Counted from the first letter of the stretch, positions 7,532 to 58,303 are shown. The stretch is DNA of 64,000 bases from an uncultured Candidatus Saccharibacteria bacterium (GCA_964479005.1 CAYZJA010000001.1:160001-224000); one strand, 5' to 3'. Notes: a model not told the origin generated them from the sequence alone. Made by a program: numbers and translations.

Positions 7532-7581
7532 CTATTAAATCGTCAATTAATTGATGATTTTTTTATTTTAAAAATAAATTG

Positions 7582-7590
7582 TGGTATAAT
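7582..7590 (+). promoter_or_regulatory. extended -10 element TGGTATAAT upstream of the large surface-protein gene
   Basis: TGnTATAAT lies 31 nt upstream of ATG 7621. The same TGGTATAAT recurs at 32071 and 45367 upstream of other genes. Confidence 0.35.
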
Positions 7591-7620
7591 TATTTAATAA
7601 TATTAAAATGTTATAAAAAG

Positions 7621-10600: not shown

Positions 10601-11244
10601 ACCCTGACACTTCTCATATTAAAGACAGTACTGTGAATGCTAATAATGGCACAAAAAAAGCAGCAAATGAACCGGTAGAAGCAGACGCTAAAATAGCCAA
10701 AGGGCAAAGTTTTGACGGAGCGGATGATTATGTGGATGCTCCTATTCCCAACCTAATTGATTACACTTATGAAGCGTGGTTTTATACTCGAAGTTTTGTT
10801 AATGGTAATGCTAATGATGGTACGGGCACTTATTTTATAGATAGACAAATTGGAGGTAACTCATTGGTTTCTCTAAAGGCTATTAGTGGAAATTTCGCAC
10901 ATCAGTATAGAGATAATGCTGGTGCAGGTCTTGGAGCAGTTCAAGGTGGCGCAATTCAGCTAGATACTTGGCAGCATGTTGTTTGGGGAAGGGAGGAAGG
11001 AATAGGGTTTTTCATTTATGTTGATACTATCAAAAATAGCGTTGCTGATACTCTTGGTGCTTTGACTCCCGACTCACCAAGAATTGGAGCACATCAAGGT
11101 TTAGTAATTTTTTTAAACGGTCTCATCGATGAAATTCGTATATCCAATATTGCACGTTCTTCAACCTGGATTTCTACAGAATACAATAATCAGTCATCAC
11201 CTAGTTCTTTTTACACAGTGGGAAACCAAGAAGAGAGTTACTAA
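7621..11244 (+). CDS. large secreted surface protein: signal peptide, three tandem ~125-aa beta-rich repeats, Cys-rich module, C-terminal LamG/concanavalin-A-like lectin domain
   Basis: ATG 7621 gives a signal peptide 'MSFNRSIKISVVFLVIFAWVLNSFPLKA' (the track start 7579 is upstream of the promoter -10). Three repeats 'FW(I)xSSVNT..GDLQFExDD..DLASP....PALT..TW..V.L...R..V.S.G...T.D.GA' occur at aa ~175/320/450. A Cys-rich segment carries 'QFHADPT'. The C-terminus 'GQSFDGADDYVDAP...YEAWFYTRSF...IDEIRISN' matches the LamG_3 pattern. Confidence 0.75.
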   Translation: MSFNRSIKISVVFLVIFAWVLNSFPLKAADGSGTNVVDPITATASATDKTFDFTFTAAETMDSGEISIAVPSGWSAPQDISTTVGYTTAASTGMTADVLTALDTHTGWSTGSNIAISADGADYQEGSYSISADIAVGAQAGEKWYFNEPGAKDFGSATKMIFWIKSSVNTNAGDLQFEVDDSADLASPEETVNIPALTVDTWTEVTISLGAARSSVLSYGIKYTVDIGAATVKIDDIRAMFDDADATTSWTQSGSGKITISSDAAIKKQGTASIKAAFLPQAKPLDKYFWSSATPRSFGSYARVSFWIYSSKATEADDLKWENDNSTGLASPEDTIGLPALAATTWTYLQVTLGATRTSVLSHGIHQVIDLGAHNEYVDAMAVQVNAAESTTNWTKTSPMVLSTDTTVYHENAASLKNIVAVTAGTGDEWWYNLGAADDWSSYTNVGFWIRSTVNTSGGNLQFEYDDNTDLASPIASLDIGALTANTWSYQNLTLTDTRTTINSYGFKYTTDVGAVIINADDILLGPGEPSFSGSGPWDINVRILALANTETITVTYGDNAGSGGGVTVTSATGDATFTTKSRISDSGTLTNIASSPVVTVGTALVVDNVQLNGQAAIDLIENTTKSVSATANISHPTDCNLITNVTSKIYRSGVTNNKDCTSDNNDCYSVASCSKTSCVETEAVYTCTINMQFHADPTDEDAEYWRAWIEATDGSLTNSNYSPVDAPDVNTLRALNTTATINYGTLDPGQNSTSTNQQITVTNTGNDAIDIRLYGIDMTWNGNTIDTANQEYSLSPFTYGSGNYLKEAPSYDDVDANLPKPTESPSNSSDIFYWGLGIPSPMPSGGPYQGTNTFEAINDQGVLGWYNPSWGYRVKVTVLASEVDADLTDYPVYVDLSNLPAGFHTNVNQTDARDIRVTKYNGTLEVPREVVFYDSATDTGELHFKGNVDDGTNTDFYIYYGNGGASDYAVDAEFGAENVWNANAKMVQHMKDDPDTSHIKDSTVNANNGTKKAANEPVEADAKIAKGQSFDGADDYVDAPIPNLIDYTYEAWFYTRSFVNGNANDGTGTYFIDRQIGGNSLVSLKAISGNFAHQYRDNAGAGLGAVQGGAIQLDTWQHVVWGREEGIGFFIYVDTIKNSVADTLGALTPDSPRIGAHQGLVIFLNGLIDEIRISNIARSSTWISTEYNNQSSPSSFYTVGNQEESY

Positions 11245-11337
11245 AGTGAAAGTGCTTGTCCATAAATATTGACATTGTTTTCTAAATAAATTATATGTTA
11301 TAATAAATAAACAAAACTATGACTAATTCCATATCTT

Positions 11338-11391
<54 letters not shown>

Positions 11392-11394
11392 ATC

Positions 11395-11421
11395 GCGGTT
11401 TTTCAGAAAAACCCTTTTTTT
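11395..11421 (+). terminator. rho-independent terminator-like hairpin
   Basis: GGTTTTT-cag-AAAAACC stem followed by a CTTTTTTT run. Confidence 0.55.
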
Positions 11422-11506
11422 GTTGGTTCAGTCTATAATACTTAACTTAGGCTGGACTTTTTTATTTGTTAATAAAAATTAAATTTTAAAAATAAAATTA
11501 AAAAAT

Positions 11507-13243
11507 ATGCCTAAAATAATAAAAAAATCTATTCCTTGGTTTTTAATTGTAAGTTTAACTCTTGCAACAGTATTAACTTTTAACTTTATGAGTTCAAGAG
11601 TTGAAGCTGATTCAGCAGATACTTCAGTAAGTGTAGGTAATACCACACCAACTTTTAATAGTGGTTATGAGCCTCATGAAGACATAGCTTCAGATGGTAC
11701 GACTCCGACAAATGTTGGTAGTGATGTAACTTTTAAAGCAACAGCAACTGACGCTAATAGTGATGATTGGAAGCTTTTGATTTGCGACAGTCCTGGTACA
11801 ACCGGTGTGACTTGTACTGGTACTGTAATTTGTAATACTGCTGTTGCAGTAAGTTCTGATACAGAAGCTACTTGTAGTTATACTGCGCTTATAGGTGATA
11901 ATCAATCAATTGATTGGTATGGTTATGCTTGTGATTCAACAGGATGTTCTGACGAGGATCACAAAGTAGATGCTTCTGGTCCTCCATTTAAAGTTAATCA
12001 TAGTCCAGCATTTACTGTTTATGCAGATGATGGACCTAAAGGACCTAACGCTACTATTACCTGGACTACCACAGCTTCTGACACAGATGATGATACAGAG
12101 CAAGATACGATAAGCTTATATGTTTGTAAAGCAGATGATTTTACCGGTTCTGCGTGCGGAGTTGGAGGACAGTGGTGTTCATCACTTAACGATGCTGATG
12201 GTGATCCAACTTGTAACGAAACCACTCCGAGACCAGATGGTGATTATGCTGCTTATGGTTATATAGTTGATAGCCATAGTTTAGTTTCTGTAGGTACAGC
12301 AGAAGGAACTGATTCTTCACCAACAGTTACTAATAGCACTCCTTCAATTACTGATTCTTCAATTAATTTATTAGACACAGATGGAAGCGGCAATTTAGAA
12401 TTAATTGATGAGCAAGCTGAAACTGCTAATTTTACAGTTACTTTTATAGTAAATGATGAGAATAGTTGTGAAAATATTACGTCCGGAGATGAAATATCTT
12501 CAGCTTTTATTAATGTAAGGATGTCAGAAAAACCAACAGGCGACTGTGATATTACTGGTGAATATAATGCTAATGATTGTTATCCAGATGATTATACTGA
12601 ATGGAATCCTGTTTGCGCTGCTTCTTCAACAGTTGATGCTTGTAATGGTGATACTGATACTACTGTTGGTTGGGCATGTACTTTCCCTTTACAATATCAT
12701 GCTGATCCAACAGTTACTGGAACTCCAAAGGCAGCTTATACCTGGATAGCAGCTGTTCAAGCTGAAGATGATCAGGCAGCTAATACGGGTCTAATAGATT
12801 CTTCAACTGGCAGCAATGATATTGATAAATTTATGTCTTATAATTTAACTACTGCCTCAATTGCTTATGGTACAGTAGCTCCTGATGATTACAGCTTAGA
12901 GCAAACCACAATTATTGAGGCTACTGGTAATGTTGGATTAGATGAGAATCTTTTGGGGAGTCTGTTATGTAATGATTATGAAACTTGTGCAGGTGATGAT
13001 GATATCGCAATTGCTGAACAACATTATAATCTAAGCCAAGGCGCAGGCTGGGCAGCTGGAACAGAACTTACTGATAGTTTGGTTGAATCTGAGCTTAATT
13101 GTACGAAGACTACTATTACTGGAACTCCAGAAACAAAAAGTACTTATTGGTATTTGCATATACCTCTAGGTCAAGGTGTAGATAGTTATACTGGTGAGAA
13201 TACTATTGAAGGCAAGGTTGATAATGAAACTTACGAAACATAA
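11507..13243 (+). CDS. secreted Thr/Asp/Cys-rich surface protein, paralogous in part to the Cys-rich module of the upstream large protein
   Basis: Signal peptide 'MPKIIKKSIPWFLIVSLTLATVLTFNFMSSRVEA'. It shares the 'C..NDCY...C....C...CTF..QYHADPT...AAYTWIAA' module with 7621..11244. Confidence 0.7.
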   Translation: MPKIIKKSIPWFLIVSLTLATVLTFNFMSSRVEADSADTSVSVGNTTPTFNSGYEPHEDIASDGTTPTNVGSDVTFKATATDANSDDWKLLICDSPGTTGVTCTGTVICNTAVAVSSDTEATCSYTALIGDNQSIDWYGYACDSTGCSDEDHKVDASGPPFKVNHSPAFTVYADDGPKGPNATITWTTTASDTDDDTEQDTISLYVCKADDFTGSACGVGGQWCSSLNDADGDPTCNETTPRPDGDYAAYGYIVDSHSLVSVGTAEGTDSSPTVTNSTPSITDSSINLLDTDGSGNLELIDEQAETANFTVTFIVNDENSCENITSGDEISSAFINVRMSEKPTGDCDITGEYNANDCYPDDYTEWNPVCAASSTVDACNGDTDTTVGWACTFPLQYHADPTVTGTPKAAYTWIAAVQAEDDQAANTGLIDSSTGSNDIDKFMSYNLTTASIAYGTVAPDDYSLEQTTIIEATGNVGLDENLLGSLLCNDYETCAGDDDIAIAEQHYNLSQGAGWAAGTELTDSLVESELNCTKTTITGTPETKSTYWYLHIPLGQGVDSYTGENTIEGKVDNETYET

Positions 13244-37894: not shown

Positions 37895-37926
37895 AAAGCA
37901 TCTCTCAATAAGGTGCTTTGTTTCTT
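37895..37926 (+). terminator. terminator-like hairpin after rpsI
   Basis: AAAGCA-(13 nt)-TGCTTT followed by GTTTCTT. Confidence 0.4.
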
Positions 37927-37953
37927 GACAAGATGAGATATATTTGTTATATT
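37925..37953 (+). promoter_or_regulatory. sigma-70-like promoter TTGACA-17-TATATT
   Basis: A consensus -35 and a near-consensus -10, ~135 nt upstream of the first small tandem gene. Confidence 0.4.
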
Positions 37954-38088: not shown

Positions 38089-38316
38089 ATGAATAACAAA
38101 CCCATCATAACTAAGGAGAAAGCACAAAAACTTTCTAAGCTTTTCGATAATCCTACTAATTTTAAACAGGCTTGTATTAAGGTTTTATTAGAAGTACCTG
38201 ATGAAAAACTGGATTTTTACAAAGGGAACTTGACTTTTTCAAAAAATGGTGGTACAATTTTGACGAAAATAGAACAATTTTGCGAACAGAAACAATTTAA
38301 GAGTTTTAAGAATTAA
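38089..38316 (+). CDS. small hypothetical protein (75 aa), tandem paralog 1
   Basis: 'MNNKPIITKEKAQKLSKLFDNPTNFKQACIKVLLEVPDEKLDFYKGNLTFSKNGG' is ~70 percent identical to the next gene. Confidence 0.55.
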   Translation: MNNKPIITKEKAQKLSKLFDNPTNFKQACIKVLLEVPDEKLDFYKGNLTFSKNGGTILTKIEQFCEQKQFKSFKN

Positions 38317-38401
38317 ACAATTGAATCATACAATTTAATTAGTTTGCCGAGAAGGTGACGCTAACCGAAGAGGGGCGTCTAGACTATCTCTAAGTTTATT
38401 A

Positions 38402-38426
38402 GGGGTCGTCTGGACACCCCTTTTTT
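38402..38426 (+). terminator. rho-independent terminator (copy 1 of duplicated 3' element)
   Basis: GGGGTCGTC..GACACCCC hairpin plus a TTTTTT run. An upstream conserved ~80-nt segment is shared with copy 2. Confidence 0.6.
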
Positions 38427-38428
38427 CA

Positions 38429-38653
38429 ATGAATAACAAATTTATTATAAACAAAAGAAAATATCAGGAACTTTCTAAACTCTTTGATAATCCTACTAAT
38501 TTTAAGGAAGCTTGTATAAAACTTCTGTTAGAAATACCAGATAAAAAATTAGATTTTTACAAAGGGAACTTGACTTTTTCAAAAAACGGTGGCATGATTC
38601 TAATGAAAATAGAAGAATTATGTGGGTCAAAACACTTTAATTTTAAAGATTGA
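38429..38653 (+). CDS. small hypothetical protein (74 aa), tandem paralog 2
   Basis: 'MNNKFIINKRKYQELSKLFDNPTNFKEACIKLLLEIPDKKLDFYKGNLTFSKNGG'. Confidence 0.55.
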   Translation: MNNKFIINKRKYQELSKLFDNPTNFKEACIKLLLEIPDKKLDFYKGNLTFSKNGGMILMKIEELCGSKHFNFKD

Positions 38654-38713
38654 ACCTACATAGATTAAATCATACAATTTAATTAGTTTGCCGAGAAGGT
38701 GACGCTAACCGAA

Positions 38714-38771
38714 GAGGGGCGTCTGAACTATCTCTAAGTTTATTAGGGGTCGTCTGGACGCCCCTTTTTTT
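38714..38771 (+). terminator. rho-independent terminator (copy 2), long stem GGGGCGTC...GACGCCCC + T-run
   Basis: 'gaggggcgtctgaac..ggggtcgtctggacgcccctttttttt'. Confidence 0.6.
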
Positions 38772-38938
38772 ATTGGAAATTATTGGGAAAAAATATCAAC
38801 TGGATATTGAGAAAAAAATAGTACTTTATAGCACCTTGAAAAATAGCACCTTGAAATAAAAATTTAGTGAAATGAGAGATAAGAAAAAGATAAAAGTATA
38901 AGAAAGAAATGTATTAGAAAGAAAGGAGGTGAAACAAA

Positions 38939-40138
38939 ATGACAAAACGCAAATGGACTAAAGAAGATGACGAATATCTTATCCAACATAGTCCGAAACA
39001 ACGGGGAGATTATGGGAAGTTGGCTATCAAACTTGATAGAACAGTAGAAGCAGTGAGGTATAGGTGTAGAAATCTAAAATTGGAAAATGTCCAAAAGAAT
39101 AGTCAGGCACAGAGAACAGATGTTCCATTAGAAGATAGGATTTACGAATTGCTTTCACATTCCAAAAAACATTCTATTGAGGAGCTAAGTAATACATTTG
39201 ATATTTGTGTAGGAAAGGTTAAAGAAGCATTAGGTGTATTACAGAGCAGACGGATTTTAATAGACGCAATAGATGACAAAATTGTTTTAGGGAATACGAT
39301 TAAACCACCAAAAGCCACTCCAATTCCGATGAAGATTTATCATAATAGGTGGATTAAGTTTGGAGTAATCAGTGATACTCATTTGAACTCCAAATATCAA
39401 AGATTGGATATTTTAAACCACGCTTATAAAATCTTTCAGAAAGAAGGAGTGAAGAATGTTCTACACGCTGGGAATATTATAGATGGTTATGGTAGATTAA
39501 ATCAGTTTGATGTATTTAACATCGGGACAGAAGACCAAATCAACTATTGTATTGAAACCTATCCTTGTAAGCAAGGGATTACTACTCACTTCATTACTGC
39601 TGATGATCACGAGGGATGGATTGTAAGGAGAGAACACATTAACATCGGAGAATTACTTGAACTCAAAGCTAACAAAATGGGTAGAAAAGATTTGAAACAT
39701 TTAGGATATATTGAAAGTGATGTGTTAGTTAAAGTTGGAAGCAAACCTACAAGAATTAGAGTATTCCATCCTGGCGGAGGCACAGCATATTCTCTTTCTT
39801 ATAAACCTCAGAAGATTGTTGAGTCCTTACAGGGTGGAGAAAAACCTGATATATTATTAGTCGGACATTTTCATAAACTCGGACATTTTGAATGGCGGAA
39901 TGTGGAAGTGTTATTGACTGGTTGTATAGAAGACCAAACTCCATTTATGAGAAAGAAACATATTGCTGCTCATCTTGGTTTCTATATTGTGAAAGCCCAT
40001 ATTGCTCCTGACGGTTCTGTCAATAGATTCATTCCAGAAAAGATTAGCTATTACGATAGGAAATATTATACCAGCAGAGCTTGGAAGAAAACTCCTACCA
40101 GTTTTGAAAAACCTATTGAATGGTTTTACAAGTGGTAA
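38939..40138 (+). CDS. Myb/SANT-like HTH + winged-helix fused to calcineurin-like metallophosphoesterase (phage-type)
   Basis: N-terminal 'KWTKEDDEYLIQH...GDYGKLAIKLDRTVEAVRYRC'. Phosphoesterase motifs 'GVISDTHL', 'HAGNIIDG', 'LLVGHFHK'. Consensus SD 'AAGGAGGTG' upstream. Confidence 0.6.
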   Translation: MTKRKWTKEDDEYLIQHSPKQRGDYGKLAIKLDRTVEAVRYRCRNLKLENVQKNSQAQRTDVPLEDRIYELLSHSKKHSIEELSNTFDICVGKVKEALGVLQSRRILIDAIDDKIVLGNTIKPPKATPIPMKIYHNRWIKFGVISDTHLNSKYQRLDILNHAYKIFQKEGVKNVLHAGNIIDGYGRLNQFDVFNIGTEDQINYCIETYPCKQGITTHFITADDHEGWIVRREHINIGELLELKANKMGRKDLKHLGYIESDVLVKVGSKPTRIRVFHPGGGTAYSLSYKPQKIVESLQGGEKPDILLVGHFHKLGHFEWRNVEVLLTGCIEDQTPFMRKKHIAAHLGFYIVKAHIAPDGSVNRFIPEKISYYDRKYYTSRAWKKTPTSFEKPIEWFYKW

Positions 40139-40208
40139 GTATTCGCTCTTAAAACAAAACGGGGTGTCTTAAACACAGACACCCCTAATCTCACAGGAGG
40201 TGATTTTG

Positions 40209-40781
40209 ATGAAAATCTTAATCGATTTGGACGGAACAGTATTTGAGACTTACGACACTTTAGAAGAAAAGTTTGTCCAGAAATTTAATCGCAAAATGAA
40301 CTGGCAGGCGCTGAAAAGCGGCAAGAATCATTACTGGCAAACAGATGGGGGTAAGTGGATAGTCAAGCAATTCAAAGACCCAAACTTTTATTACAATTTA
40401 GAAACTTATCCTGATGCTCCCAAAGTGTTAAGGCAACTTGCCCGAAAACATACAATCATATATTGTACCGCGAGGAGGTTTGGATTAGAAAATGCCACCT
40501 CCTATTCGCTTGGTTATAGAAAACTGCCATTCGGGAAGGTATATTGTATTGGCAGGAGACACATTGCGGGGGTTAAAAAGAGAATTGCCTTAGATGAAAA
40601 AATTGACCTTGCTATTGATGATGAATCAAAAGTGGTAGAAAAACTTTCTGAAGTCTGTCAAGTTTTGATATTTACTCAGAATTATAATAAAGGTTGTAAA
40701 TTCGGTAAGAGAGTAAAATCTTGGAAGGAGGTGCGTCATGAATTACAAGCAAAGAAAAGAAATAATAGAACAAGCAAATAA
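40209..40781 (+). CDS. 5'(3')-deoxyribonucleotidase-like HAD protein (NT5C family)
   Basis: 'MKILIDLDGTVFETYD' DxDGT at the N-terminus, ~190 aa, with SD 'CAGGAGGTG'. ATG 40209 is preferred over the track start 40200. Confidence 0.5.
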   Translation: MKILIDLDGTVFETYDTLEEKFVQKFNRKMNWQALKSGKNHYWQTDGGKWIVKQFKDPNFYYNLETYPDAPKVLRQLARKHTIIYCTARRFGLENATSYSLGYRKLPFGKVYCIGRRHIAGVKKRIALDEKIDLAIDDESKVVEKLSEVCQVLIFTQNYNKGCKFGKRVKSWKEVRHELQAKKRNNRTSK

Positions 40782-41073
40782 AAGACGTCAATCCTTAATG
40801 CTTAATAAAGGAAAAGAATATTCAAAGGGTAATGCCGATATTAATTATAACTTTAAAGAAGTTGCTGATAGATTAGGCACTCGTCTTGCTGGAACTCCTG
40901 AATATACTTGTTTAGTTTATTTATTCAAACAGATTTTATCAATAGAGAAATGGGCAAGAGATGGAAAGTTAAGTTCAGGGGAAACAATTTTTTCAAGATT
41001 AGATGATGCCAGAAACTACATGGATATTTTAGAAAGTCTGATAAGAGAAAAATCCGATGTACAAGGAAGGTGA
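40738..41073 (+). CDS. hypothetical protein (111 aa)
   Basis: An ORF with SD 'GGAAGGAGGTG' that overlaps the upstream gene. Confidence 0.45.
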   Translation: MNYKQRKEIIEQANKRRQSLMLNKGKEYSKGNADINYNFKEVADRLGTRLAGTPEYTCLVYLFKQILSIEKWARDGKLSSGETIFSRLDDARNYMDILESLIREKSDVQGR

Positions 41074-41077
41074 TGGT

Positions 41078-41224
41078 ATGGAAATTCAGAATGTTTACTG
41101 TTTGATTAAGATTACTTGTGTTGTGATTATTGTAGTAGGATTTTTCGCAATTGTTCAATTACATCTTAAAAGAGAAAAGCAAAGGATACGGGATTATTAT
41201 AAAAGAGGAGGTGATAAGCGATGA
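41078..41224 (+). CDS. small membrane protein (48 aa), holin-like size
   Basis: Manual ORF 'MEIQNVYCLIKITCVVIIVVGFFAIVQLHLKREKQRIRDYYKRGGDKR' with one TM and a charged C-terminus. ATGA overlap with the next gene. Confidence 0.35.
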   Translation: MEIQNVYCLIKITCVVIIVVGFFAIVQLHLKREKQRIRDYYKRGGDKR

Positions 41225-42303
41225 AAAAACTACTCGTAGTATTGATTTGTTTGTTTCTATTAGTTCCAACTGTAATTTCTGCACCAGTTGAAAGATTAAG
41301 TGTAGGAGATTTTACTCGTGCAGTAACGGCTCAGATAGTCTGTAATGTTGATGTGTATAGACGGGATTTAACCTGGTATAAGATTGAGGATGGTCAGGTG
41401 ATCCCTGAATTCAAAGATTTAGATGAAGATGACTGGGCATATCAATGGTTAAAGAAAGGCTGGTTCGTGGTATATGGCGAATGGAATACAGAACCTCGCA
41501 AAGGTAAGATAATGGGTTCTGGTGAAGTATTATATTCCTGGTTATTACCTATGGGGATTAACTTAGAAGGTAAACCTGCTGCAACTTATGTAGGCACAAA
41601 TGCCCATGTGGTAGATGTATTTATGTTAGAAGCCAGTAGGGGTTCAAGAGATAAACCATTAGACCTATATGCCGAGAAGGACACGATGAAGACAATGAAT
41701 ATGCTTAGAACGACTTATAAAGAAGAGGCTAAACCAATAGCCCAGTATTACTTTGATATAGATAACAGTTATATCACTGTAAAGACCGAAGCAGACCAAA
41801 GATTTAGAACTAAAGTTAACATCGTATTGTTTGACATAGCATTAGATTTTGCCTTATTGGAAATGGAAAATGTTTTAGGTCTGCCTTATGTGAGTTTTAG
41901 AGGCACTCCTATACAGGTTGGCGAAACGATTAAAATCTGTGGAGCACCATTAGGATTTGCTTTTAGTAGAGACGAAGGACGAGTAAGTCAAGTTCACTTA
42001 AATCTCGGAACTGATGGAGTGGAAGATTATATTGTATGGGATAACCAAGTGCGTATGGATATTGCTGCTGCACCAGGAAGTTCGGGTAGTGCGATATTTG
42101 ATAAAGATGGCTATATGATTGCCCAATTACACGGAATAATGGTTCACAACGGCAACTATATTCAAGGCGGACAATTAGCAGTAGACCAAGAAGATATAAT
42201 TCGTTTTCTGGTGTTAAATGGTTTTTCGTGGATAGTTCAAAATCCTTATGGAATTTGGGCTAACGCACCATATAATACAGTCCGACCAAAAGTAGGAGAA
42301 TAG
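41221..42303 (+). CDS. secreted trypsin-like (S1/Trypsin_2) serine protease
   Basis: Signal peptide 'MKKLLVVLICLFLLVPTVISAP'. Catalytic His 'GTNAHVV', Asp 'DFALLEME' and Ser 'APGSSGSAIFD'. SD 'GAGGAGGTG'. Confidence 0.6.
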   Translation: MKKLLVVLICLFLLVPTVISAPVERLSVGDFTRAVTAQIVCNVDVYRRDLTWYKIEDGQVIPEFKDLDEDDWAYQWLKKGWFVVYGEWNTEPRKGKIMGSGEVLYSWLLPMGINLEGKPAATYVGTNAHVVDVFMLEASRGSRDKPLDLYAEKDTMKTMNMLRTTYKEEAKPIAQYYFDIDNSYITVKTEADQRFRTKVNIVLFDIALDFALLEMENVLGLPYVSFRGTPIQVGETIKICGAPLGFAFSRDEGRVSQVHLNLGTDGVEDYIVWDNQVRMDIAAAPGSSGSAIFDKDGYMIAQLHGIMVHNGNYIQGGQLAVDQEDIIRFLVLNGFSWIVQNPYGIWANAPYNTVRPKVGE

Positions 42304-42380
42304 AAATGAGAATTAACGCAGAGGGGGCTTACCTTGATGGTTTCTAAAAGTCCCCCTCCAGCTGTATGGAGGTGATTAAG

Positions 42381-42530
42381 ATGAGGTGGTTATTACTCAC
42401 ATTTGCAATATCTACTATCATATCTTTTGTAGGATTTGTGAATTGTAAAATGGAAAAGGAGAAAGATTGGTTTATTGCGTTATTGGTTTCTGCAACATTA
42501 GTTGTATTGATGTTTGTTGAATTATCTTAG
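42381..42530 (+). CDS. small two-TM membrane protein (49 aa)
   Basis: Manual ORF 'MRWLLLTFAISTIISFVGFVNCKMEKEKDWFIALLVSATLVVLMFVELS' with SD 'GGAGGTG'. Confidence 0.35.
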   Translation: MRWLLLTFAISTIISFVGFVNCKMEKEKDWFIALLVSATLVVLMFVELS

Positions 42531-42545
42531 GGGGAGGTGATAGAG

Positions 42546-42893
42546 ATGAAGAAACGAAGAAAAAAGCAAAAAGTTAAGAGAGAAGTTTTAAAGAAAATTG
42601 TTAGAGAGAAAAAGGTTTGTTATTTCTGTGGAACTACCGAGAATATAACCGAGCATCACATAATTTTTAAGTGTTTCATTAAAGGCGGAGAGTTACCAAA
42701 TAACAAGAAAGACATTTGTGATAAGTGCCACAAGCAGTTTCATAAATTAGCAAAACCTGTTGTGGATTTACTCTTATCGGTAATTCAAGGATTACAACCG
42801 AAACCAACTCGGAAAATAGGATTCATAAGAACGAACAACAAAGGAGGCGAAAGAAATGAGAAACATAAAAAGATGTCTATTGTTCTATCCTGA
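42546..42893 (+). CDS. HNH endonuclease
   Basis: 'CYFCGTTENITEHHII...NKKDICDKCHKQFH' is an HNH/CxxC..CxxH pattern, with SD 'GGGGGAGGTG'. Confidence 0.6.
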   Translation: MKKRRKKQKVKREVLKKIVREKKVCYFCGTTENITEHHIIFKCFIKGGELPNNKKDICDKCHKQFHKLAKPVVDLLLSVIQGLQPKPTRKIGFIRTNNKGGERNEKHKKMSIVLS

Positions 42894-43080
42894 CATACTG
42901 CCAGCTTTACCTTGTTCTTATCCCGATGAGGATAAATGCGGTAGATATATGAAAATCTATCGTAGAAGTAAGAACAGAAAACAGGCAATAGTTCTTTGCT
43001 CACATCGGGTTAAAGAATTAGGTAGAAAGACTTGTGTCAGAGAACAAATGAAACTCAAAGATTCTACAATTTACAGGTAG
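42856..43080 (+). CDS. small Cys-rich protein, paralog A (74 aa)
   Basis: 'C...P.LPCSYPDEDKCGRY...CSHRVKELGRKTC' shares a motif with 43436..43630. Confidence 0.45.
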   Translation: MRNIKRCLLFYPDILPALPCSYPDEDKCGRYMKIYRRSKNRKQAIVLCSHRVKELGRKTCVREQMKLKDSTIYR

Positions 43081-43113
43081 AATTCTCAAAGCCATTAGAA
43101 GGAGGGAGAAGAA

Positions 43114-43275
43114 ATGAAAACAAGAATAGTAGTAATTGTAGAAAATGAAATATCTTATTCAGTAAATGATTTTACCAGAATGGAACTCAAAGTTTTCAAG
43201 AAAAGGATTAAGGAACAGATAGAAGAGAAATTGTTAGCAGGTTGGAAAGTGATAAAAATAAAAATTAGGAGGTAA
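43114..43275 (+). CDS. small hypothetical protein (53 aa)
   Basis: Manual ORF 'MKTRIVVIVENEISYSVNDFTRMELKVFKKRIKEQIEEKLLAGWKVIKIKIRR' with SD 'AGGAGGGAG'. Confidence 0.35.
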   Translation: MKTRIVVIVENEISYSVNDFTRMELKVFKKRIKEQIEEKLLAGWKVIKIKIRR

Positions 43276-43281
43276 GAAGTA

Positions 43282-43422
43282 ATGAGAATAACAAGAGAAG
43301 AGCTCGTAAAACAAGGATGGTCATTTATGAGAAGAATAAGCAGAAATTGCGAAATCTGGACAAGAGAAGAAGGAATGATCCTATGGAATAGAGAAACATT
43401 AAAGGTTTATGTGATATGTTAG
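43282..43422 (+). CDS. small hypothetical protein (46 aa)
   Basis: Manual ORF 'MRITREELVKQGWSFMRRISRNCEIWTREEGMILWNRETLKVYVIC' with SD 'TAGGAGGTAA'. Confidence 0.3.
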   Translation: MRITREELVKQGWSFMRRISRNCEIWTREEGMILWNRETLKVYVIC

Positions 43423-43435
43423 GAGGTAAAAAGAA

Positions 43436-43630
43436 ATGAGAGATATTTATCGTTGTCCGATTATGTGGAAACTTTTAAAGAAAGCAACTCCTTGTGCGTA
43501 TCCTGATGTTGAAAAATGTGGAAGAGTTGGTGGCTCTTTCCTTTGTAAATATCGGATAGCTGAAATAGGTAAAAAGAATTGCCTTAAAGAAGTTGCTGAG
43601 TTGAAAGATTTTGCTAAAACTCTCAAATAA
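43436..43630 (+). CDS. small Cys-rich protein, paralog B (64 aa)
   Basis: 'C..PCAYPDVEKCGRV..C......GKKNC' with SD 'TAGGAGGTAAA'. Followed by the hairpin GGCAAGAG..CTCTTGCC at 43639-43662. Confidence 0.45.
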   Translation: MRDIYRCPIMWKLLKKATPCAYPDVEKCGRVGGSFLCKYRIAEIGKKNCLKEVAELKDFAKTLK

Positions 43631-43794
43631 AAGCCAATGGCAAGAGGGCTATATCTCTTGCCACTCTCTCGGAGGGTATTTGTAGATGTTGTTCAAAATC
43701 ACATAAGTCCCATTTTTCTACAAGTATCTTCCGAGAGGGTAATTTCCTCAAACTAATAAAGGTCTTTAAAAAATAATCATAAATAAATATAAAT

Positions 43795-43995
43795 ATGAAA
43801 TTTTGGAAACCTCTCACAAAATACAGATATAGCAAAGAGAGAAATGAAGTTAAATATCATACTGATTTTATGCTTGATAAAGAAGAAGGATTTGAATTAA
43901 GATTTGCGGACTTTATGTTTAAGGAAAAAGTTCCAAAAGATAAGGTTTGGAAATGTCATCTTGAGCTTGCTGTGGAGGAATTTAATGAAAAATAA
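43795..43995 (+). CDS. hypothetical protein (66 aa)
   Basis: An ORF with no recognisable motif and no SD. Confidence 0.3.
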   Translation: MKFWKPLTKYRYSKERNEVKYHTDFMLDKEEGFELRFADFMFKEKVPKDKVWKCHLELAVEEFNEK

Positions 43996-44103
43996 AACAA
44001 CCAAAAAACATTGTGCGTTACATTATAAATCTAAATAAACTTAGTTATATTATTTTAATAGATTAAAACAATTTTTAAATTTTACGAATTAGAATATGTT
44101 CCA

Positions 44104-44556
44104 ATGTTCCAAATATCCGAAGAAAAATTAAAAAAGATAAGAACGGTAGAAATTGCCATCAATAAGAATTTATTTTTAATTTGTATTGTTATTTCAGTAA
44201 TAACAATGAGTATTTTAGGAATAGAATTTTTTAGCCATAGAATCTTTCCTTCTTCTAAAATAAGTTTTTTTTACATTGGGATTTTGTTGATTTATTCTAT
44301 TCATAAGGAAATGTTGAGATGGGTAGGAGCAAAAAGAATAGAAAGGCAAGGTGAGTGGTTTGTTTATTTTTGGATCGGATTTACTATCATCTTATATGTT
44401 ATTAATTTCTCTACAAAAGGTTATTTTAATTATCCTTTAGGAAATACATCATCGGAATCGCTTAATCAAATTGCCGTTACTACTTTAGAAATCTGCGGCA
44501 TTTTTATTGTTTCTAGATTATCTAAGATGGCAAAGATTATTTTGGAAAAAAGATAA
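44104..44556 (+). CDS. hypothetical multi-TM membrane protein
   Basis: About four hydrophobic helices and no SD. Confidence 0.45.
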   Translation: MFQISEEKLKKIRTVEIAINKNLFLICIVISVITMSILGIEFFSHRIFPSSKISFFYIGILLIYSIHKEMLRWVGAKRIERQGEWFVYFWIGFTIILYVINFSTKGYFNYPLGNTSSESLNQIAVTTLEICGIFIVSRLSKMAKIILEKR

Positions 44557-44624
44557 TAATAATATTCTAAGATAGAACATTTTTTGTATTTTGAAAATTA
44601 AAAAGAGAGGAGGTGGACAATTTG

Positions 44625-45258
44625 ATGAAATTATTAAGAGTTTTTTTTGTCAGCTTTTGGGAAAGGAATTATAACTTTGGTTCCAATCTTAATTATTTTC
44701 TGGTTACTTGGACTTTTTTTGGGAGAAAATATGATAACTATGCGAGATATCATATTTTCTATTTTAAGGGGATTACTTCCTAGGGGGATGGTAGTGCAAG
44801 AGTGGATGATTGGTTTAGGATTGATTTTAACTATTCTGTTTGTCGGTTTAATTTCTTCATCAATTTTCAAAAGAATCTACGCCTGTACAGGTAGATTAAT
44901 AGGTAAATTAATCCAAAAATCATTAACAGGGAAAATAAAAGAACAATATCAGGATCAGGGTATGGTGATATTTGAGTTTAGGGAAGGAATATGGATTCCA
45001 GGAATTATAGTTGGATATATAGCAGGAAGTGAAAAACTTAAGGGTGGAAAATTTTTGAGAATCTTTATTCCCAATGTACCCATACCTTTAACTGGATTTT
45101 CACCTATTTTTGTGCAAGAAAGCAAAGTGATACATATCGATCTTCCGGTTGATGAGGTACTTAATATGTATATTTCAGCTGGGATATTAGGCCCTAAAAG
45201 ACTCCCAGAAATAGTCAGGGAATTAGAGAAAAGAGAAATAATATCAAAAATAGACTAG
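44625..45258 (+). CDS. DUF502/COG2928-like membrane protein; ATG 44625 is out of frame with the main ORF (TTG 44647) across a T8 tract
   Basis: A strong SD 'GAGGAGGTG' sits 8 nt before ATG 44625. Removing one T from TTTTTTTT (44641-44648) gives 'MKLLRVFLSAFGKGIITLVPILIIFWLL', which resembles (from memory) the DUF502 N-terminus 'MK.LR..FL.GLL.LLPL.IT'. Confidence 0.5.
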
Positions 45259-45272
45259 TAGAGACTTTTAAA

Positions 45273-45311
45273 GGCGGTCTCAATATTTATCTGAGAACCG
45301 CCCTTTTTTTT
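45273..45311 (+). terminator. rho-independent terminator
   Basis: GGCGGTCTC-(11 nt)-GAGAACCGCC followed by CTTTTTTTT. Confidence 0.7.
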
Positions 45312-45346
45312 GGTATAAGAAAACTCTAATCTATACCAGGGATGGA

Positions 45347-45375
45347 TTGACTAACAAGATTATTAGTGGTATAAT
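45347..45375 (+). promoter_or_regulatory. sigma-70 promoter TTGACT-17-TGgTATAAT
   Basis: Consensus spacing with an extended -10, located 58 nt upstream of ATG 45433. Confidence 0.5.
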
Positions 45376-45432
45376 TGGATTACTCTACTTAGTACTCTTG
45401 AAAATTTTAAAAAAAGGAGGAAAAAGAAAAAG

Positions 45433-45675
45433 ATGAAAAGGATATTATTTGAAAAGAACGCTAAAAGAATTACAAAGGCAGTAGCAGAATTTGTTGCAGA
45501 AGAATTTAAGCCTTTGAGGGAAGGGGATAAGATAAAAAAGATAGGAGAGCTGTTAAAGGGTTTTGAAGACACAAAAAAAATAAATGGAAATTTTTTTGTT
45601 GTTCTTCGATTACCTGAAGGGACAGAAGCAGCAATTGACTTACAAGGAAGACTTTATGACTTAAATGAAATTTGA
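45433..45675 (+). CDS. hypothetical protein (80 aa)
   Basis: SD 'AAAGGAGGAAAAAG'. No motif recognised. Confidence 0.45.
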   Translation: MKRILFEKNAKRITKAVAEFVAEEFKPLREGDKIKKIGELLKGFEDTKKINGNFFVVLRLPEGTEAAIDLQGRLYDLNEI

Positions 45676-45703
45676 TTTTAGGCAATAGGAGGCGAAAAAC
45701 ATA

Positions 45704-45787
45704 ATGACAGTAACTACATTTTCAGAATTCTTGCCCTGGTTTGTAATAATGATCGGAGTGTATTTTTTATCTCTTTGGATAAAATAA
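45704..45787 (+). CDS. small membrane peptide (27 aa)
   Basis: Manual ORF 'MTVTTFSEFLPWFVIMIGVYFLSLWIK' with SD 'TAGGAGGCG'. Confidence 0.3.
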   Translation: MTVTTFSEFLPWFVIMIGVYFLSLWIK

Positions 45788-45793
45788 GACAAC

Positions 45794-45839
45794 AAAACCG
45801 CTTAGAAGGTTGCATAAGTGTAACTGGACAAGCGGTTTT
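45794..45839 (+). terminator. long hairpin AAAACCGCTT...AAGCGGTTTT (10-bp stem, 26-nt loop)
   Basis: An inverted repeat immediately after the small-peptide gene. It marks the right edge of the SD-rich island. Confidence 0.4.
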
Positions 45840-45889
45840 AAATTGCTATATTCGCTTTTTTGTGATATAATTTTAGAACAAAAATACTT

Positions 45890-54993: not shown

Positions 54994-55021
54994 TTGACAA
55001 GTCATCTAAGATGGCTATAAT
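54994..55021 (+). promoter_or_regulatory. sigma-70 promoter TTGACA-16-TATAAT
   Basis: Consensus hexamers upstream of the dif-like site and the xer gene. Confidence 0.5.
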
Positions 55022-55034
55022 TAAAGTATAATAA

Positions 55035-55062
55035 GGTTCGCATAATTATAGTTAAGCGAACA
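55035..55062. other. dif-like Xer recombination site (28 bp): GGTTCGCATAA-TTATAG-TTAAGCGAACA
   Basis: The left arm matches the E. coli dif XerC arm GGTGCGCATAA at 10 of 11 positions. There is a 6-bp spacer, and the right arm is a near-perfect inverted copy (9/11). It lies 48 nt upstream of the recombinase gene. Confidence 0.5.
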
Positions 55063-55109
55063 TCTAATATAGCTTATAATAGCCTATTATACATTGTCAC
55101 GTTAATAAC

Positions 55110-56066
55110 ATGAAAAAGAACCAAAAACCAATCCCCTGTCATTTATCTGATTTTTTAGATTGGTTAGATATTGAAAAAGGTTTATCTTCTAAATCCCAGG
55201 AAAATTATAATAGATTTTTAAAAAAATTTTTAGATTGGTTAAAATCAAATAATTTAGAGGGTTTAAAGCCTCATGAATTAACTACTGATCATGTTTGGAA
55301 ATATCGGGTTTTCCTCTCGCGCCGATATCTTCCTAAAACGAAAACACCCCTTAAAAAAACAACTCAAAATTATTATTTAATAGCTTTAAGGTCCTTTTTG
55401 AATTATTTTGCTGATAGAGATATTTTGTCTTTACCATCTGAAAAGATAAAATTAGCTAAAGATAGAGATGAAAAACAAGTTAGTTTTTTAAATTTAGAGC
55501 AATTAGAGAAATTATTTTCAGCTCCTGACACTTCTAAAAAGCAAGAATTGCGGGACAGAGCTATTTTAGAGGTTTTATTCTCTACTGGTATGAGGATAGC
55601 AGAATTAGTTTCATTAAACCGGGATCAAATTAAAATAAATCCTGGAATAAAAGAATTAGAAGTTGGGATTATTGGCAAAGGGAAAAAACTACGAACTGTT
55701 TATTTCTCTGAAAGAGCTCTATCTTGGTTATCTAAATACTTTAAAACCCGAAATGATGATGAAAAAGCGTTATTTATCAATTATAGAAGCAGGAAAGGAG
55801 CGCCACGGAGATTAACTCCACGTTCAATTGAAAAAAATATGAAAAAATATGTGATTATGTCAGGGGTTCCAATAACAACTACTCCTCACGCCATGCGCCA
55901 TACTTTTTCGACAGATCTTTTAAATCAAGGCGTGGATTTAAAAATACTCCAGGAATTTCTTGGCCACAAAAGCATTGCCGCTACACAAATTTACGCGCAT
56001 GTTACGAGTAAAAAACTTCGTGAGGTACATCGGAAATTTCACAGTGGCCGTAAATTAAAAACATAA
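55110..56066 (+). CDS. tyrosine site-specific recombinase (XerC/XerD-like)
   Basis: C-terminal catalytic 'HAMRHTFSTDLLNQGVDLKILQEFLGHKSIAATQIYAHV' (R..H..R..Y) and an N-terminal SAM-like core-binding domain. Confidence 0.8.
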   Translation: MKKNQKPIPCHLSDFLDWLDIEKGLSSKSQENYNRFLKKFLDWLKSNNLEGLKPHELTTDHVWKYRVFLSRRYLPKTKTPLKKTTQNYYLIALRSFLNYFADRDILSLPSEKIKLAKDRDEKQVSFLNLEQLEKLFSAPDTSKKQELRDRAILEVLFSTGMRIAELVSLNRDQIKINPGIKELEVGIIGKGKKLRTVYFSERALSWLSKYFKTRNDDEKALFINYRSRKGAPRRLTPRSIEKNMKKYVIMSGVPITTTPHAMRHTFSTDLLNQGVDLKILQEFLGHKSIAATQIYAHVTSKKLREVHRKFHSGRKLKT

Positions 56067-56129
56067 GTAAAATAAATAAAATAAGGTAGAGGTTTGTTCC
56101 CCTACCTTATAAATTCAGCTTCTATGTTT

Positions 56130-56336
56130 CTACATTTTATTTTCAATCAATCTTAGAATTCTTTTCCATTTCTCAAAATTCTTATTAATAACTTTTGAAA
56201 TTTTTTTCCAATCTTCAGGGGATGGCTCACGTATGCCCTTTTTTGGTTCCCCTAAAAAGATTTCCCCTGTTTTTGTATCACAAACAATATCATCTCCATT
56301 TTCTAATTTACCTATTTCTTCCCAATTAGCCATCAT
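56130..56336 (-). CDS. small hypothetical protein (68 aa)
   Basis: SD 'GAGGTG'. Overlaps the upstream gene by ATGA. Confidence 0.4.
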   Translation of the reverse strand: MMANWEEIGKLENGDDIVCDTKTGEIFLGEPKKGIREPSPEDWKKISKVINKNFEKWKRILRLIENKM

Positions 56337-56649
56337 TTTTCACCTCTTCGATAATTTTATCAATCTTTAATCTATCATTAGGTACAAGATCTTTCATTTT
56401 GAGACCGAAAACCTCATTAATTACGCGAGTAAGGATGTTTTCTAGATTTTCATTTACTTTTTCCTCTAATTCTTTTATTTGTCTCAGTAGGCCGTCAATC
56501 TCGATGTCTTTATGGATGTTTTTAGCTTCCAGCTCAGACCATAGATTCTCAAAATAAGATTTAATGGCTATGTCTAGCAGGTCTTTTTGGGTATCTGATA
56601 GATAGTTACAATTCCAAATAAAATCAATAAGTTTTTCCCTGAGAGTCAT
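56326..56649 (-). CDS. hypothetical protein (107 aa), coiled-coil rich
   Basis: SD 'AAGGAGGAG' and a predicted helical fold. Confidence 0.4.
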   Translation of the reverse strand: MTLREKLIDFIWNCNYLSDTQKDLLDIAIKSYFENLWSELEAKNIHKDIEIDGLLRQIKELEEKVNENLENILTRVINEVFGLKMKDLVPNDRLKIDKIIEEVKNDG

Positions 56650-56701
56650 TTATTCACTCCTCCTTTTTTTATTTATTTCAGATTTTTGAATCTCAATCTA
56701 T

Positions 56702-56899
56702 CTAATAAATTTGTGTCTTTTCTTTATGTATACCATCAAGAATTGCTTTTATTCGCGGTTCTGATTTTTTATTGATGTACTTCCCTTGGTCTTTTATTTC
56801 TTTTTTGCTCATTTTCTTACCTTTTCCTCTTGTCCGCGGTCTTTTTAGAATATCAGCCGGACTAGAGCACAATGTTATTTGCTCTGATATTTTTGCCAT
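56702..56899 (-). CDS. small basic protein (65 aa), possible DNA-binding regulator
   Basis: SD 'GAAGGAGGGG'. The sequence is Lys/Arg-rich ('KRPRTRGKGKKMSKKEIK'). Confidence 0.4.
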   Translation of the reverse strand: MAKISEQITLCSSPADILKRPRTRGKGKKMSKKEIKDQGKYINKKSEPRIKAILDGIHKEKTQIY

Positions 56900-57012: not shown

Positions 57013-57121
57013 CCAGCACTACCTATACATAGGTGCGTGGGGTATATGAAATTGAATAAATAAATGCTAATATAACTAACATTGCCCATTATTATTTGTT
57101 AATTGTTATTTGTTAATTTTT

Positions 57122-58303
57122 ATGAGAATAAGTTATTCCAGTTTAGAGAATTTTAAACAGTGTCCTCTAAAATATAAGTTTTCTAATATAGATAAAATAA
57201 AAGAGCCTAAAAGCAAAGAGGCTATTTTTGGCACTTATATTCATAAAGTTCTGAAATGGTTTTATCAAAAAGATCCACACTTCCCTACTCTTGATGCTTT
57301 ATTAAAGTATTATCGTGATTATTGGCCTAGAAAAACAGAAGGATTTGAATGGAAAGATCCTGAAGAAGAAAAATCTTATTTCAAAGAGGGGTTAAGAATA
57401 TTAGAAGAATTTTATAAGAAAAATATTCCACATAAAACATCTATTTTGGATTTAGAAACAAGGTTTGAAGTTGTTATTGATGAAAATCCTAATAAACCAA
57501 ATGGCAAGCATATTTTAACAGGCGTAATAGATAGAATAGATAAATTACCAGATGATACAATTGAAATAATTGATTATAAAACAGGAAAAAGAATGCCTTC
57601 TCAAAAAGCTTTAGATAAAAATGATCAACTTTCTCTTTACGCTATTGGATTAAAAAGCCGTTGGCCAAGAACTAAAATTGAAGATTTACGCCTAAGCTTA
57701 TATTTTCTTAAGTTCAATGAAAGAATAAATACCAAAAGAACAGAAAAAGACTTGGAAGAAGCAAAAGATAAAATAATAAATTTAATTCATCGAATAGAAA
57801 AAAGCGATTTTGAACCTCATTCTTCAGCATTATGTGGTTGGTGCGGTTATCGTAATATTTGTCCAATTTGGCGGCATTTTTATGAAGACGAGGAAAGCAA
57901 TCATTTAAATGATATAGATATTAAAGAAAAAATAGATAAATACTTTGTTTTAAAAAAAGAAAAAGAAAAATTAGAACAAGAATTATTAGAATTAAAGAAT
58001 TTAATTGATGTTTATTGTCATCAAAAAGGATTAAAGCGCGTATTTGGTGAAAATGGTTATTTTAGCCATACTGTTTATAACAAAGTTTCTTATGATATTC
58101 CTAAATTAAAAGAAATTTTAGAGCCATTGGAAAAATGGGAAGATATTATTGAAATTAATGCTAAAAAATTAAAAAAGGTTTTAAAAGAGATACCTGCTGA
58201 TTTGAGGGAAAAAATAAAAGAAACAGAAAAAATAGAAGAAAAATTTAAATACTTATCCACCAACCATATAAGCAAAAAAGAAATCAAAGAGCAACTGCCT
58301 TAG
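57122..58303 (+). CDS. PD-(D/E)XK nuclease of the Cas4/RecB-AddB nuclease-domain type with C-terminal Cys cluster
   Basis: 'IDRIDKL..IEIIDYKTGK' (D..EhhDYK core), 'DQLSLYAI' (QhxxY), and a C-terminal 'CGWCGYRNICPIW' Fe-S-type cysteine cluster plus an N-terminal 'CPLKY' Cys. Confidence 0.6.
   Translation: MRISYSSLENFKQCPLKYKFSNIDKIKEPKSKEAIFGTYIHKVLKWFYQKDPHFPTLDALLKYYRDYWPRKTEGFEWKDPEEEKSYFKEGLRILEEFYKKNIPHKTSILDLETRFEVVIDENPNKPNGKHILTGVIDRIDKLPDDTIEIIDYKTGKRMPSQKALDKNDQLSLYAIGLKSRWPRTKIEDLRLSLYFLKFNERINTKRTEKDLEEAKDKIINLIHRIEKSDFEPHSSALCGWCGYRNICPIWRHFYEDEESNHLNDIDIKEKIDKYFVLKKEKEKLEQELLELKNLIDVYCHQKGLKRVFGENGYFSHTVYNKVSYDIPKLKEILEPLEKWEDIIEINAKKLKKVLKEIPADLREKIKETEKIEEKFKYLSTNHISKKEIKEQLP

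Follow-up and report, generated by a model that had tools for sequence, protein, structure and literature searches.

A phage-derived island, probably a cryptic prophage remnant, in the rpsI-macA gap of a Paceibacterota chromosome

The 64,000-nt stretch considered here (GCA_964479005.1 CAYZJA010000001.1:160001-224000, deposited as an uncultured Candidatus Saccharibacteria bacterium; hereafter, the window) contains, between the ribosomal-protein gene rpsI and the MacA-like adaptor gene macA, an island of mostly small genes whose borders, placed by comparison with related genomes, are ~37.93 and ~45.33 kb (~7.4 kb). Retrieval based on RpoA places the host in the Paceibacterota, within the Candidate Phyla Radiation (CPR; Patescibacteria), near Staskawiczbacteria, with RpoA identities of 71-95% to nine relatives; the GC content of the window is ~31%. 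An earlier interpretation of this DNA, made without database searches (the sequence-only reading), had described a foreign, phage-like insertion after the ribosomal-protein cluster, and this is borne out by empty sites in relatives and by collinear phage contigs. The genes and signals of the island and its flanks are collected in Table 1, in which the contigs of relatives and phages carry L numbers.

Table 1. Genes and signals of the rpsI-macA gap, its flanks and related loci (window coordinates unless a contig is named; aa, amino acids; SD, Shine-Dalgarno site)
Feature	Coordinates	Strand	Description
infA, rpsM, rpsK, rpsD, rpoA, rplQ, rplM, rpsI			upstream neighbours of the island
rpsI terminator hairpin	37895..37919	+	z = -4.3; conserved in L007, L009, L011, L083
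Island-type sigma-70-like promoter TTGACA-17-TGtTATATT	37925..37953	+	11/12 positions match; left island end
dupA	38089..38316	+	orphan 75-aa gene, no SD; first copy of 340-bp tandem unit
112-nt element, copy 1	38320..38431	+	~26-bp hairpin and U-run, strong terminator; -44 kcal/mol, z = -6.4
dupB	38429..38653	+	74-aa dupA paralogue
112-nt terminator element, copy 2	38664..38775	+	
Three tandem motifs (A)TAGYACYTT(GAAAA)	38818..38858	+	phage-type regulatory/promoter-like element before first phage gene
MPE399	38939..40138	+	two N-terminal helix-turn-helix (HTH)-type domains and intact metallophosphoesterase (MPE); SD AAGGAGGTGA
G+C-rich hairpin between MPE and NT5C	40161..40185	+	z = -4.8; conserved in L007, L083
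NT5C-family 5'-deoxynucleotidase	40209..40781	+	Pfam E = 2e-14; SD GGAGGTGAT
p111	40738..41073	+	small phage protein phrog_6802; SD AAGGAGGTG
p55	41057..41224	+	small predicted membrane protein, no SD; ATGA overlap with next gene
S1 (trypsin-like) serine protease	41221..42303	+	signal peptide (secreted), His/Asp/Ser motifs; Trypsin_2 E = 3e-13; SD AGGAGGTGAT
p54	42381..42530	+	49 aa from SD-led ATG; small membrane protein; homologue in L083
Small HNH endonuclease	42546..42893	+	Pfam HNH_5; SD GGAGGTGAT
p74, p64, p53, p46	42856..43630	+	four SD-led small genes; p74 and p64 Cys-rich paralogues
Short, then long hairpin (24-bp stem, 30-nt loop)	43636..43741	+	-53.7 kcal/mol, z = -8
p66	43795..43995	+	orphan, no SD
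mem150	44104..44556	+	membrane protein, no SD, host-like composition; conserved right arm
mem203	44625..45258	+	DUF502-like membrane protein, host-like composition; SD-led ATG 44625
Intrinsic terminator	45273..45311	+	right island end; native promoter starts 36 nt downstream
Native promoter TTGACT-17-TGgTATAAT	45347-45375	+	flank, outside island; matches L009, L011, L012, L013
p80	45433-45675	+	SD-led, native flank; present in L011-L015
p27	45704-45787	+	SD-led, native flank; present in L015
Flank terminator	45794-45839	+	outside island
MacA-like adaptor, then MacB-type ABC ATPase and permease			downstream neighbours of the island
Xer-like tyrosine recombinase	55110-56066		
pyrE in rpsI-macA gap of relatives	L009 12384-12968; L012 12351-12944; L013 6227-6820		preceded by the native promoter used for p80 in the window

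The island differs from the rest of the window in translation signals and composition. SD sites, scored as GGAGG, AGGAG or GAGGT located 4-17 nt 5' of curated starts, precede 11 of the 16 genes within 38089-45258 versus 2 of 50 elsewhere in the window (Fisher p = 2.7e-7), where the core genes, including all ribosomal-protein genes, have A-rich leaders without an SD. Small products are also frequent, as the sequence-only reading had noted along with the SD sites: 9/16 island genes encode fewer than 80 amino acids. Of the repeated ATGA overlaps that it reported, a single case was found, at 41221. Its claim of higher GC applies to 38776-43630 (35.2% vs 31.2% for the remaining window) but not to the right 1.7 kb of the island (43.63-45.33 kb, 29.5%), and elevated total GC is not peculiar to the island, reaching 37% at 6.5-13 kb. 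The island block is better separated by GC content at third codon positions (GC3), which is 0.206 +/- 0.027 for host genes (maximum 0.26) and exceeds this mean by more than three standard deviations for the genes of MPE399 (0.29), NT5C (0.36), the S1 protease (0.29), HNH (0.34), p74 (0.31) and p46 (0.32). The hairpin pair at 43636-43741 marks the end of this GC3-rich and SD-rich block.

As a marker of foreign DNA, however, the SD is enriched rather than fully specific, since the native genes p80 and p27 and the pyrE genes of relatives are strongly SD-led. Most related phage contigs lack SD sites as the host does (L065, L067, L073); by the same motif-and-spacing test, only 1/16 genes of L076 and 1/17 of L078 are SD-led, each time the MPE gene, and another L078 gene has GGAGG just beyond the scored spacing. 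The contigs with S1- and HNH-type genes (L081 and L082) are SD-rich. Since most of the related phage contigs are SD-poor and these two are not, the SD richness of the island derives from the particular phage cassettes that it holds. No account of SD usage in Patescibacteria turned up in the literature search.

The borders were set by comparison with genomes lacking the island. In L015, L011 and L014, rpsI is followed by p80 and then macA, with a spacing of ~270 bp (L015) or ~150 bp (L011) between rpsI and p80, and L015 also has p27; this is the empty site that the sequence-only reading had proposed to look for between rpsI and the MacAB genes. Because close relatives show it, the island is an insertion. 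In L009, L012 and L013, rpsI is followed by an SD-led pyrE. The rpsI-macA gap is a hot spot that can hold any of several alternatives. Homology with the empty-site genomes ends on the left after the rpsI terminator, and the promoter that follows it is shared with L007, decayed in L083 and not found in the empty-site genomes. On the right, the promoter at 45347-45375 corresponds to the single promoter of the empty-site genomes, and p80 and p27 are conserved in island-less relatives and hence native, which places the border at the terminator at 45273-45311. This terminator and the hairpin at 45794-45839 both fold as the sequence-only reading claimed, and the former is indeed a border; the extension to 45839 takes in native genes, whereas on the left the island reaches farther than proposed, to ~37.93 kb, and includes the orphan pair at 38089-38653. 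A further candidate at the right end, the promoter as a phage/host hybrid (attR) sharing GATTGACTAACAAGA with phage contig L069, was rejected because the native promoters of L012 and L013 are nearly identical (TTGACTAAAAAAG and TTGACTAAGAAAG).

An origin of the island by chimeric assembly of host and phage contigs is hardly credible. The contigs of three relatives (L007, L008, L010) do stop inside or just past the rplM/rpsI region, which is consistent with strain heterogeneity or repeats at the hot spot breaking assemblies. Nonetheless, both junctions are crossed at 100% identity by independent JGI (Joint Genome Institute) and Logan assemblies from different samples (L003 on the left, L002 on the right), and other genomes have related islands at this site. 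The identical sequence (100%) is present on a 551,616-bp JGI metagenome contig and on several independent Logan/JGI contigs, and every contig reaching far enough for context shows the island in the same chromosomal setting.

The first gene of the phage-type block encodes MPE399, in which Pfam Metallophos_2 scores over its cut-off and an HTH lies at the N-terminus. The metal-binding motifs of the calcineurin-like metallophosphoesterase superfamily (DxH, GD/GN, GNHE-like, H and GHxH) are all present; among 50 homologues D146, H148, N179, H224, H277, H310 and H312 are invariant and D182 nearly so. NCBIfam gives local matches to the small subunit of archaeal DNA polymerase D (PolD), and an AlphaFold (AF2) model (mean predicted local distance difference test score, pLDDT, 86) has its best Foldseek matches in the PDB to DP1, the 3'-5' exonuclease subunit of PolD (E = 2e-9), followed by MJ0936, Vps29, the Pol alpha B-subunit and Mre11/SbcD. 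Whole-chain template-modelling (TM) scores are low (~0.39), and therefore we limit the structural claim to a nuclease-type MPE fold; the predicted activity of MPE399 is that of a DNA-binding nuclease or phosphodiesterase. A PDB sequence search was uninformative. The family comprises at least 614 homologues, most of roughly 330-440 amino acids, and its members include a protein of a Halorubrum tailed virus and proteins of metagenome-assembled genomes labelled Atribacteria, Bacteroidetes and Proteobacteria. A tblastn search of 50,697 phage records with MPE399 gave one match, a Halorubrum virus, in which the gene is surrounded by hypothetical proteins throughout, and an IMG/VR scan returned a single weak HTH match. 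All inspected genomic contexts of the homologues are phage-like, and no description of phage DP1-like HTH-MPE proteins was found in the literature. The combination of an HTH with a DP1/Mre11-like MPE constitutes a large phage protein family without annotation, with more than 600 members.

The other products named by the sequence-only reading were likewise recovered with Pfam, namely NT5C, Trypsin_2 with a signal peptide, and HNH_5, and the best relatives of the island genes lie on contigs of uncultivated phages. In L069-72, genes for Endonuclease VII and a PG_binding endolysin are followed by MPE (79% identical), NT5C, HNH and a p46 homologue in the order of the island. In L076, the MPE gene (80%) adjoins a p111 gene (84%) beside Lin1244_N and DNA methylase genes, and in L078 a DnaB-like helicase gene lies near MPE. 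Other contigs carry NinG, a sigma factor, terminase and portal (L073) or tail genes, a deoxynucleoside monophosphate (dNMP) kinase and an integrase (L067); p46 homologues occur in L069, L073 and L078. The S1 protease gene adjoins HNH in L081 (46.6 kb; DnaB, GH108, RNase H) and in L082, where identities are 73% for S1, 61% for HNH and 75% for p64; the protease has 58 homologues, several of them on contigs of 35-48 kb. HNH is 47% identical to the L069 copy, and NT5C is 39-47% identical to phage copies. The 4.9-kb core (38.8-43.65 kb) forms a mosaic, and its cassettes recur, in the same order, in the early, replication-proximal regions of uncultivated tailed phages. IMG/VR scans with the S1 protease, p111 and mem203 gave no matches.

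This gene order bears on the possibility that the island is a co-opted operon for scavenging nucleotides and peptides, whatever the origin of its genes. CPR bacteria depend on salvage, and the nuclease or phosphodiesterase, the 5'-nucleotidase and the protease would now contribute to it in an episymbiont; pyrE occupies the same intergenic slot in L009, L012 and L013, the protease is secreted, and mem150 and mem203, both membrane proteins, are conserved together with the island. We nevertheless consider salvage distinctly improbable: MPE399 and NT5C lack signal peptides, HNH and the small Cys-rich proteins have no salvage role, in content and order the genes match phage early regions, the operon is insulated by strong terminators, and the island is missing from close relatives.

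A related island lies at the same site in L007, L083 and L084/L086. The genes are thus not syntenic in all relatives, which the sequence-only reading had named as evidence that would speak against an insertion, yet the island is not confined to the window either. At the left end, the sister islands share a dupA remnant and a double motif (82-86% DNA identity), and at the right end mem150 and mem203 (~81% DNA identity; 85% and 77% for the proteins), values comparable to those of the host flanks (e.g., 79% for macA). In their interiors the gene order is kept and the alleles are changed: an unrelated phrog_221 MPE without an HTH stands in the position of MPE399, a dGTP_diPhyd_N protein in that of p111, and a second NT5C is added. 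Identities between the window and the sister islands are 68% for NT5C (L007/L083), 33% for S1 and, with L083, 39% for HNH, whereas the MPE and p111 of the window are far closer to phage copies (80-84%) than to any sister-island gene. L015 lacks the island although its MacAB is 98.3% identical to that of the island-bearing L083. Because a related island occupies the same site in three other genomes, this is an old, polymorphic hot-spot island rather than a one-off recent insertion.

Such allele swapping could also reflect an arms race, if the island were a domesticated anti-phage or superinfection-exclusion cassette whose phage-type promoters fire upon infection by a related phage, so that the nuclease, dNMP nucleotidase, HNH protein and secreted protease abort or block it. 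Nucleotide depletion is an established defence principle, the counterparts of these genes in phage T5 are toxic if expressed alone, and the phage-specific motif is kept upstream. The ORFs (open reading frames) are intact, and three or more genomes distinct at species level have conserved the architecture, the slot of the HTH-MPE being taken by an unrelated MPE. We rate this reading as unlikely, since PADLOC-DB 2.0 yielded, apart from a spurious Cas8b match, only weak trypsin-domain matches (LmuA, E = 2.6e-4 at best), the closest relative by ribosomal proteins and MacAB (L015) lacks the island, and a sensor or regulator gene is absent save for the HTH of MPE399, which the sister islands do not have.

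No gene for an integrase, replication, packaging, virion or lysis function was detected in 37.9-45.3 kb by Pfam or PHROG, and terminase, portal, capsid and tail genes in particular gave no matches; the sequence-only reading had correctly noted that no integrase lies inside. That the island is mobile, autonomously or with a helper, is therefore highly improbable, whether as a phage satellite or as an element of the IMEX type (integrative mobile element exploiting Xer) using the Xer-like recombinase at 55110-56066. Its presence or absence at one fixed site among close relatives would fit such an element, as would a tyrosine recombinase and a probable replication terminus ~10 kb downstream. However, neither an integrase, primase/replication, capsid or packaging gene nor an attachment-site (att) repeat was found in or beside the island, conserved host genes separate it from the recombinase, which is also present in L083, and all contigs with context show the same chromosomal setting.

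The arms of the island differ from its core. On the left, a 340-bp tandem duplication comprises two units, each made of an orphan gene and a terminator, with the two copies of the 112-nt element being 95% identical. The JGI 551-kb contig (L001) lacks 276 bp at 38382-38657, including dupB, whereas both copies are present in L003 and in the window; the difference reflects either variation within the population or collapse of the tandem unit during assembly. Only four relatives of dupA were found among 1.8 billion representative proteins, remnants occur in L007 and L083, and a metagenome scan with dupA gave no matches. One relative, P0185 (1166 amino acids), matches dupA in six separate stretches, and for this reason the 75-aa gene may be a free-standing copy of a repeat domain. 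On the right, mem150 is 85% identical to the L083/L084 copies and has no phage relatives. The frame of mem203 is shifted by a T8 run at 44641-44648 (T7 in L083) and resumes as an open frame at TTG 44647; slippage or phase variation could occur at this slippery run. The long inverted repeat CCCTCTCAGAG...CTCTGAGAGGG (43663-43741) recurs between modules of L083 at ~6880, 7740, 8330 and 9260, often 3' of a terminator-like hairpin and 5' of the motif ACCTTAAAA, and could be an RNA-processing, regulatory or recombination site. Rfam identified no RNA family within the island.

The motif that stands in three copies before MPE399 was sought in the form TAGYACCTT(N)A(A/C)A across the 1.2 Mb of sequence retrieved. 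Further copies lie within the sister islands and in the p80 and mem203 leaders. Phage contigs L069-72 and L076-80 have it too, there without exception on the + strand and almost exclusively between genes. Four matches on the minus strand of distant loci were taken as chance. A metagenome scan with the double motif recovered only the other half of the L084 island, and an IMG/VR scan nothing. The motif region contains no convincing sigma-70 promoter, and no good one was found between the double terminators and MPE399. A second candidate, CTTGAAAATTT as a cassette leader motif, was rejected because it is not enriched over chance.

Taken together, the island is probably a non-autonomous, phage-derived cryptic prophage remnant, reshuffled by phage recombination. 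Among the three options offered by the sequence-only reading, a decayed prophage fits best; a satellite fails every hallmark that could be tested, and a defence cassette has no database support and is speculative. In the history that we propose, a temperate phage or phage fragment would have entered the site once, in an ancestor, and its late genes and integrase would have been lost afterwards. The island would then have disappeared from some lineages, while in others recombination with infecting phages presumably replaced what was left, piece by piece, at regulatory sequences common to both, with the TAGYACCTT motif and the hairpin before NT5C as likely exchange sites. The strong SD sites would have arrived with the phage cassettes. 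The operon is presumably silent under normal conditions, given the two long terminators upstream, the lack of a good sigma-70 promoter and the toxicity of the T5 counterparts when expressed alone. Should selection maintain it, its action would await a trigger, for example an infecting related phage, and would consist in interference with superinfection. As to present function, the genes could form an inert remnant, a retained phage-triggered interference cassette or a co-option for nucleotide salvage being less likely.

Several observations weigh against a cryptic prophage remnant. The closest phage contigs are only 3-10 kb long, no complete parent phage genome was recovered, and L082, which holds some of the nearest relatives, spans 3 kb without a phage hallmark gene of its own. 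No flanking att-type direct repeats were found beyond general promoter similarity, and since an integrase is lacking as well, we assign no mode of entry. With few exceptions the ORFs are intact, and genomes diverged to species level retain the architecture, which is more order than simple decay would leave. Finally, neither the dupA/dupB left arm nor mem150 and mem203 on the right have phage relatives, and both arms may consist not of phage DNA but of older cargo or genes of the host. It is conceivable, if decidedly doubtful, that the rpsI-macA gap holds a long-lived integrase-less cassette that repeatedly samples early takeover genes of phages, keeps them behind phage-specific motifs and strong SD sites, and fires only on arrival of the cognate phage. 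Such a locus would serve as a decoy or for abortive infection, inducible by phage, in a host nearly devoid of classical defence systems. In this SD-poor lineage, SD-led translation would then set accessory and phage genes apart as an expression class of their own.

Elsewhere in the window, the cumulative GC skew has its maximum at ~55000-56500, where gene orientation turns from + to -, and together these suggest a replication terminus ~10 kb downstream of the island. A second SD-led cluster lies nearby, at 56130-56899 (- strand), between the Xer-like recombinase and a PD-(D/E)XK/DUF2800 nuclease (57110-58303); its three small ORFs (65, 107 and 68 amino acids) have no family matches, and it may be a small terminus-associated insert. 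At 7461-13243, a tRNA-Lys gene precedes two very large ORFs (1221 and 578 amino acids) without Pfam matches; this stretch has the highest total GC of the window (37%), yet its GC3 is host-like.

For the host group, links between phages and CPR bacteria are scarce, and the island ties uncultivated phage contigs of ~30-33% GC to a Paceibacterota host. Where core genes lack an SD, SD density and GC3 can flag small phage-derived inserts without integrase or virion genes, which prophage finders based on hallmark genes could be expected to miss. The family of HTH and DP1/Mre11-like MPE proteins is worth biochemical study. Current concepts are unchanged, as prophage remnants and genomic islands have already been described in Patescibacteria.

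Cryptic prophages and remnants are known in E. coli K-12, e.g., e14, Rac and DLP12. Like these, the island is an intergenic block of phage genes that is absent in relatives, lacks the modules for making particles and is mosaic with related phages, and its insertion into an otherwise empty site and its homology and collinearity with phages agree with this class. It differs in lacking an integrase and att repeats, a lack that is common in old remnants and compatible with the class, in holding only an early nucleotide-metabolism segment, in an architecture that spans several species with its alleles replaced, and in residing in a CPR host of ~0.55 Mb. The hallmarks of satellites (phage-inducible chromosomal islands, PICI; P4-like elements; PICI-like elements, PLE), i.e., an integrase of their own, a replication initiator or primase and helper-hijacking genes, were not detected, and, whereas an IMEX would be integrated at the dif site of the replication terminus, beside Xer or using it, the GC-skew switch and Xer-like gene lie at 55-56 kb, ~10 kb away across conserved host genes. 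Phage morons are self-contained cassettes of promoter, gene and terminator, usually fitness genes expressed in lysogeny. The MPE399 gene resembles them in traveling with its own upstream motif, SD and downstream hairpin, the SD being kept even in SD-poor phage contigs, whereas its location in replication-proximal regions and predicted nuclease activity are unlike morons.

Genomic islands and prophages of ~44 kb have been reported in Paceibacteria/Patescibacteria (mSystems 2025, PMC12455944). The present island shares with them the host group and horizontally acquired phage DNA; unlike those prophages, which are near complete, it is a 7.4-kb fragment that compositional island finders or CheckV-type filters could easily miss. 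Here its translation signals gave it away. The closest functional counterpart is the pre-early (first-step-transfer) region of phage T5, where A1 (a metallo-phosphatase), A2 (DNA-binding), dmp (a dNMP phosphatase) and hegG (HNH) degrade host DNA and drain nucleotides, and are toxic alone (bioRxiv 10.64898/2026.04.02.716235). Homology to A1 or Dmp was not detected: MPE399 matched only the Halorubrum virus by tblastn, and NT5C weakly matched phrog_2643 ("5'-3' deoxyribonucleotidase", E = 1.3e-4). In the island, moreover, the HTH is fused to the MPE, and the genes reside in a bacterial chromosome rather than an infecting phage. Since no sequence homology was detected, the likeness is one of analogy only; in combining a DNA-binding metallophosphoesterase, a 5'-deoxynucleotidase, an HNH nuclease and tiny ORFs, the gene set of the island parallels the host-takeover genes of T5.

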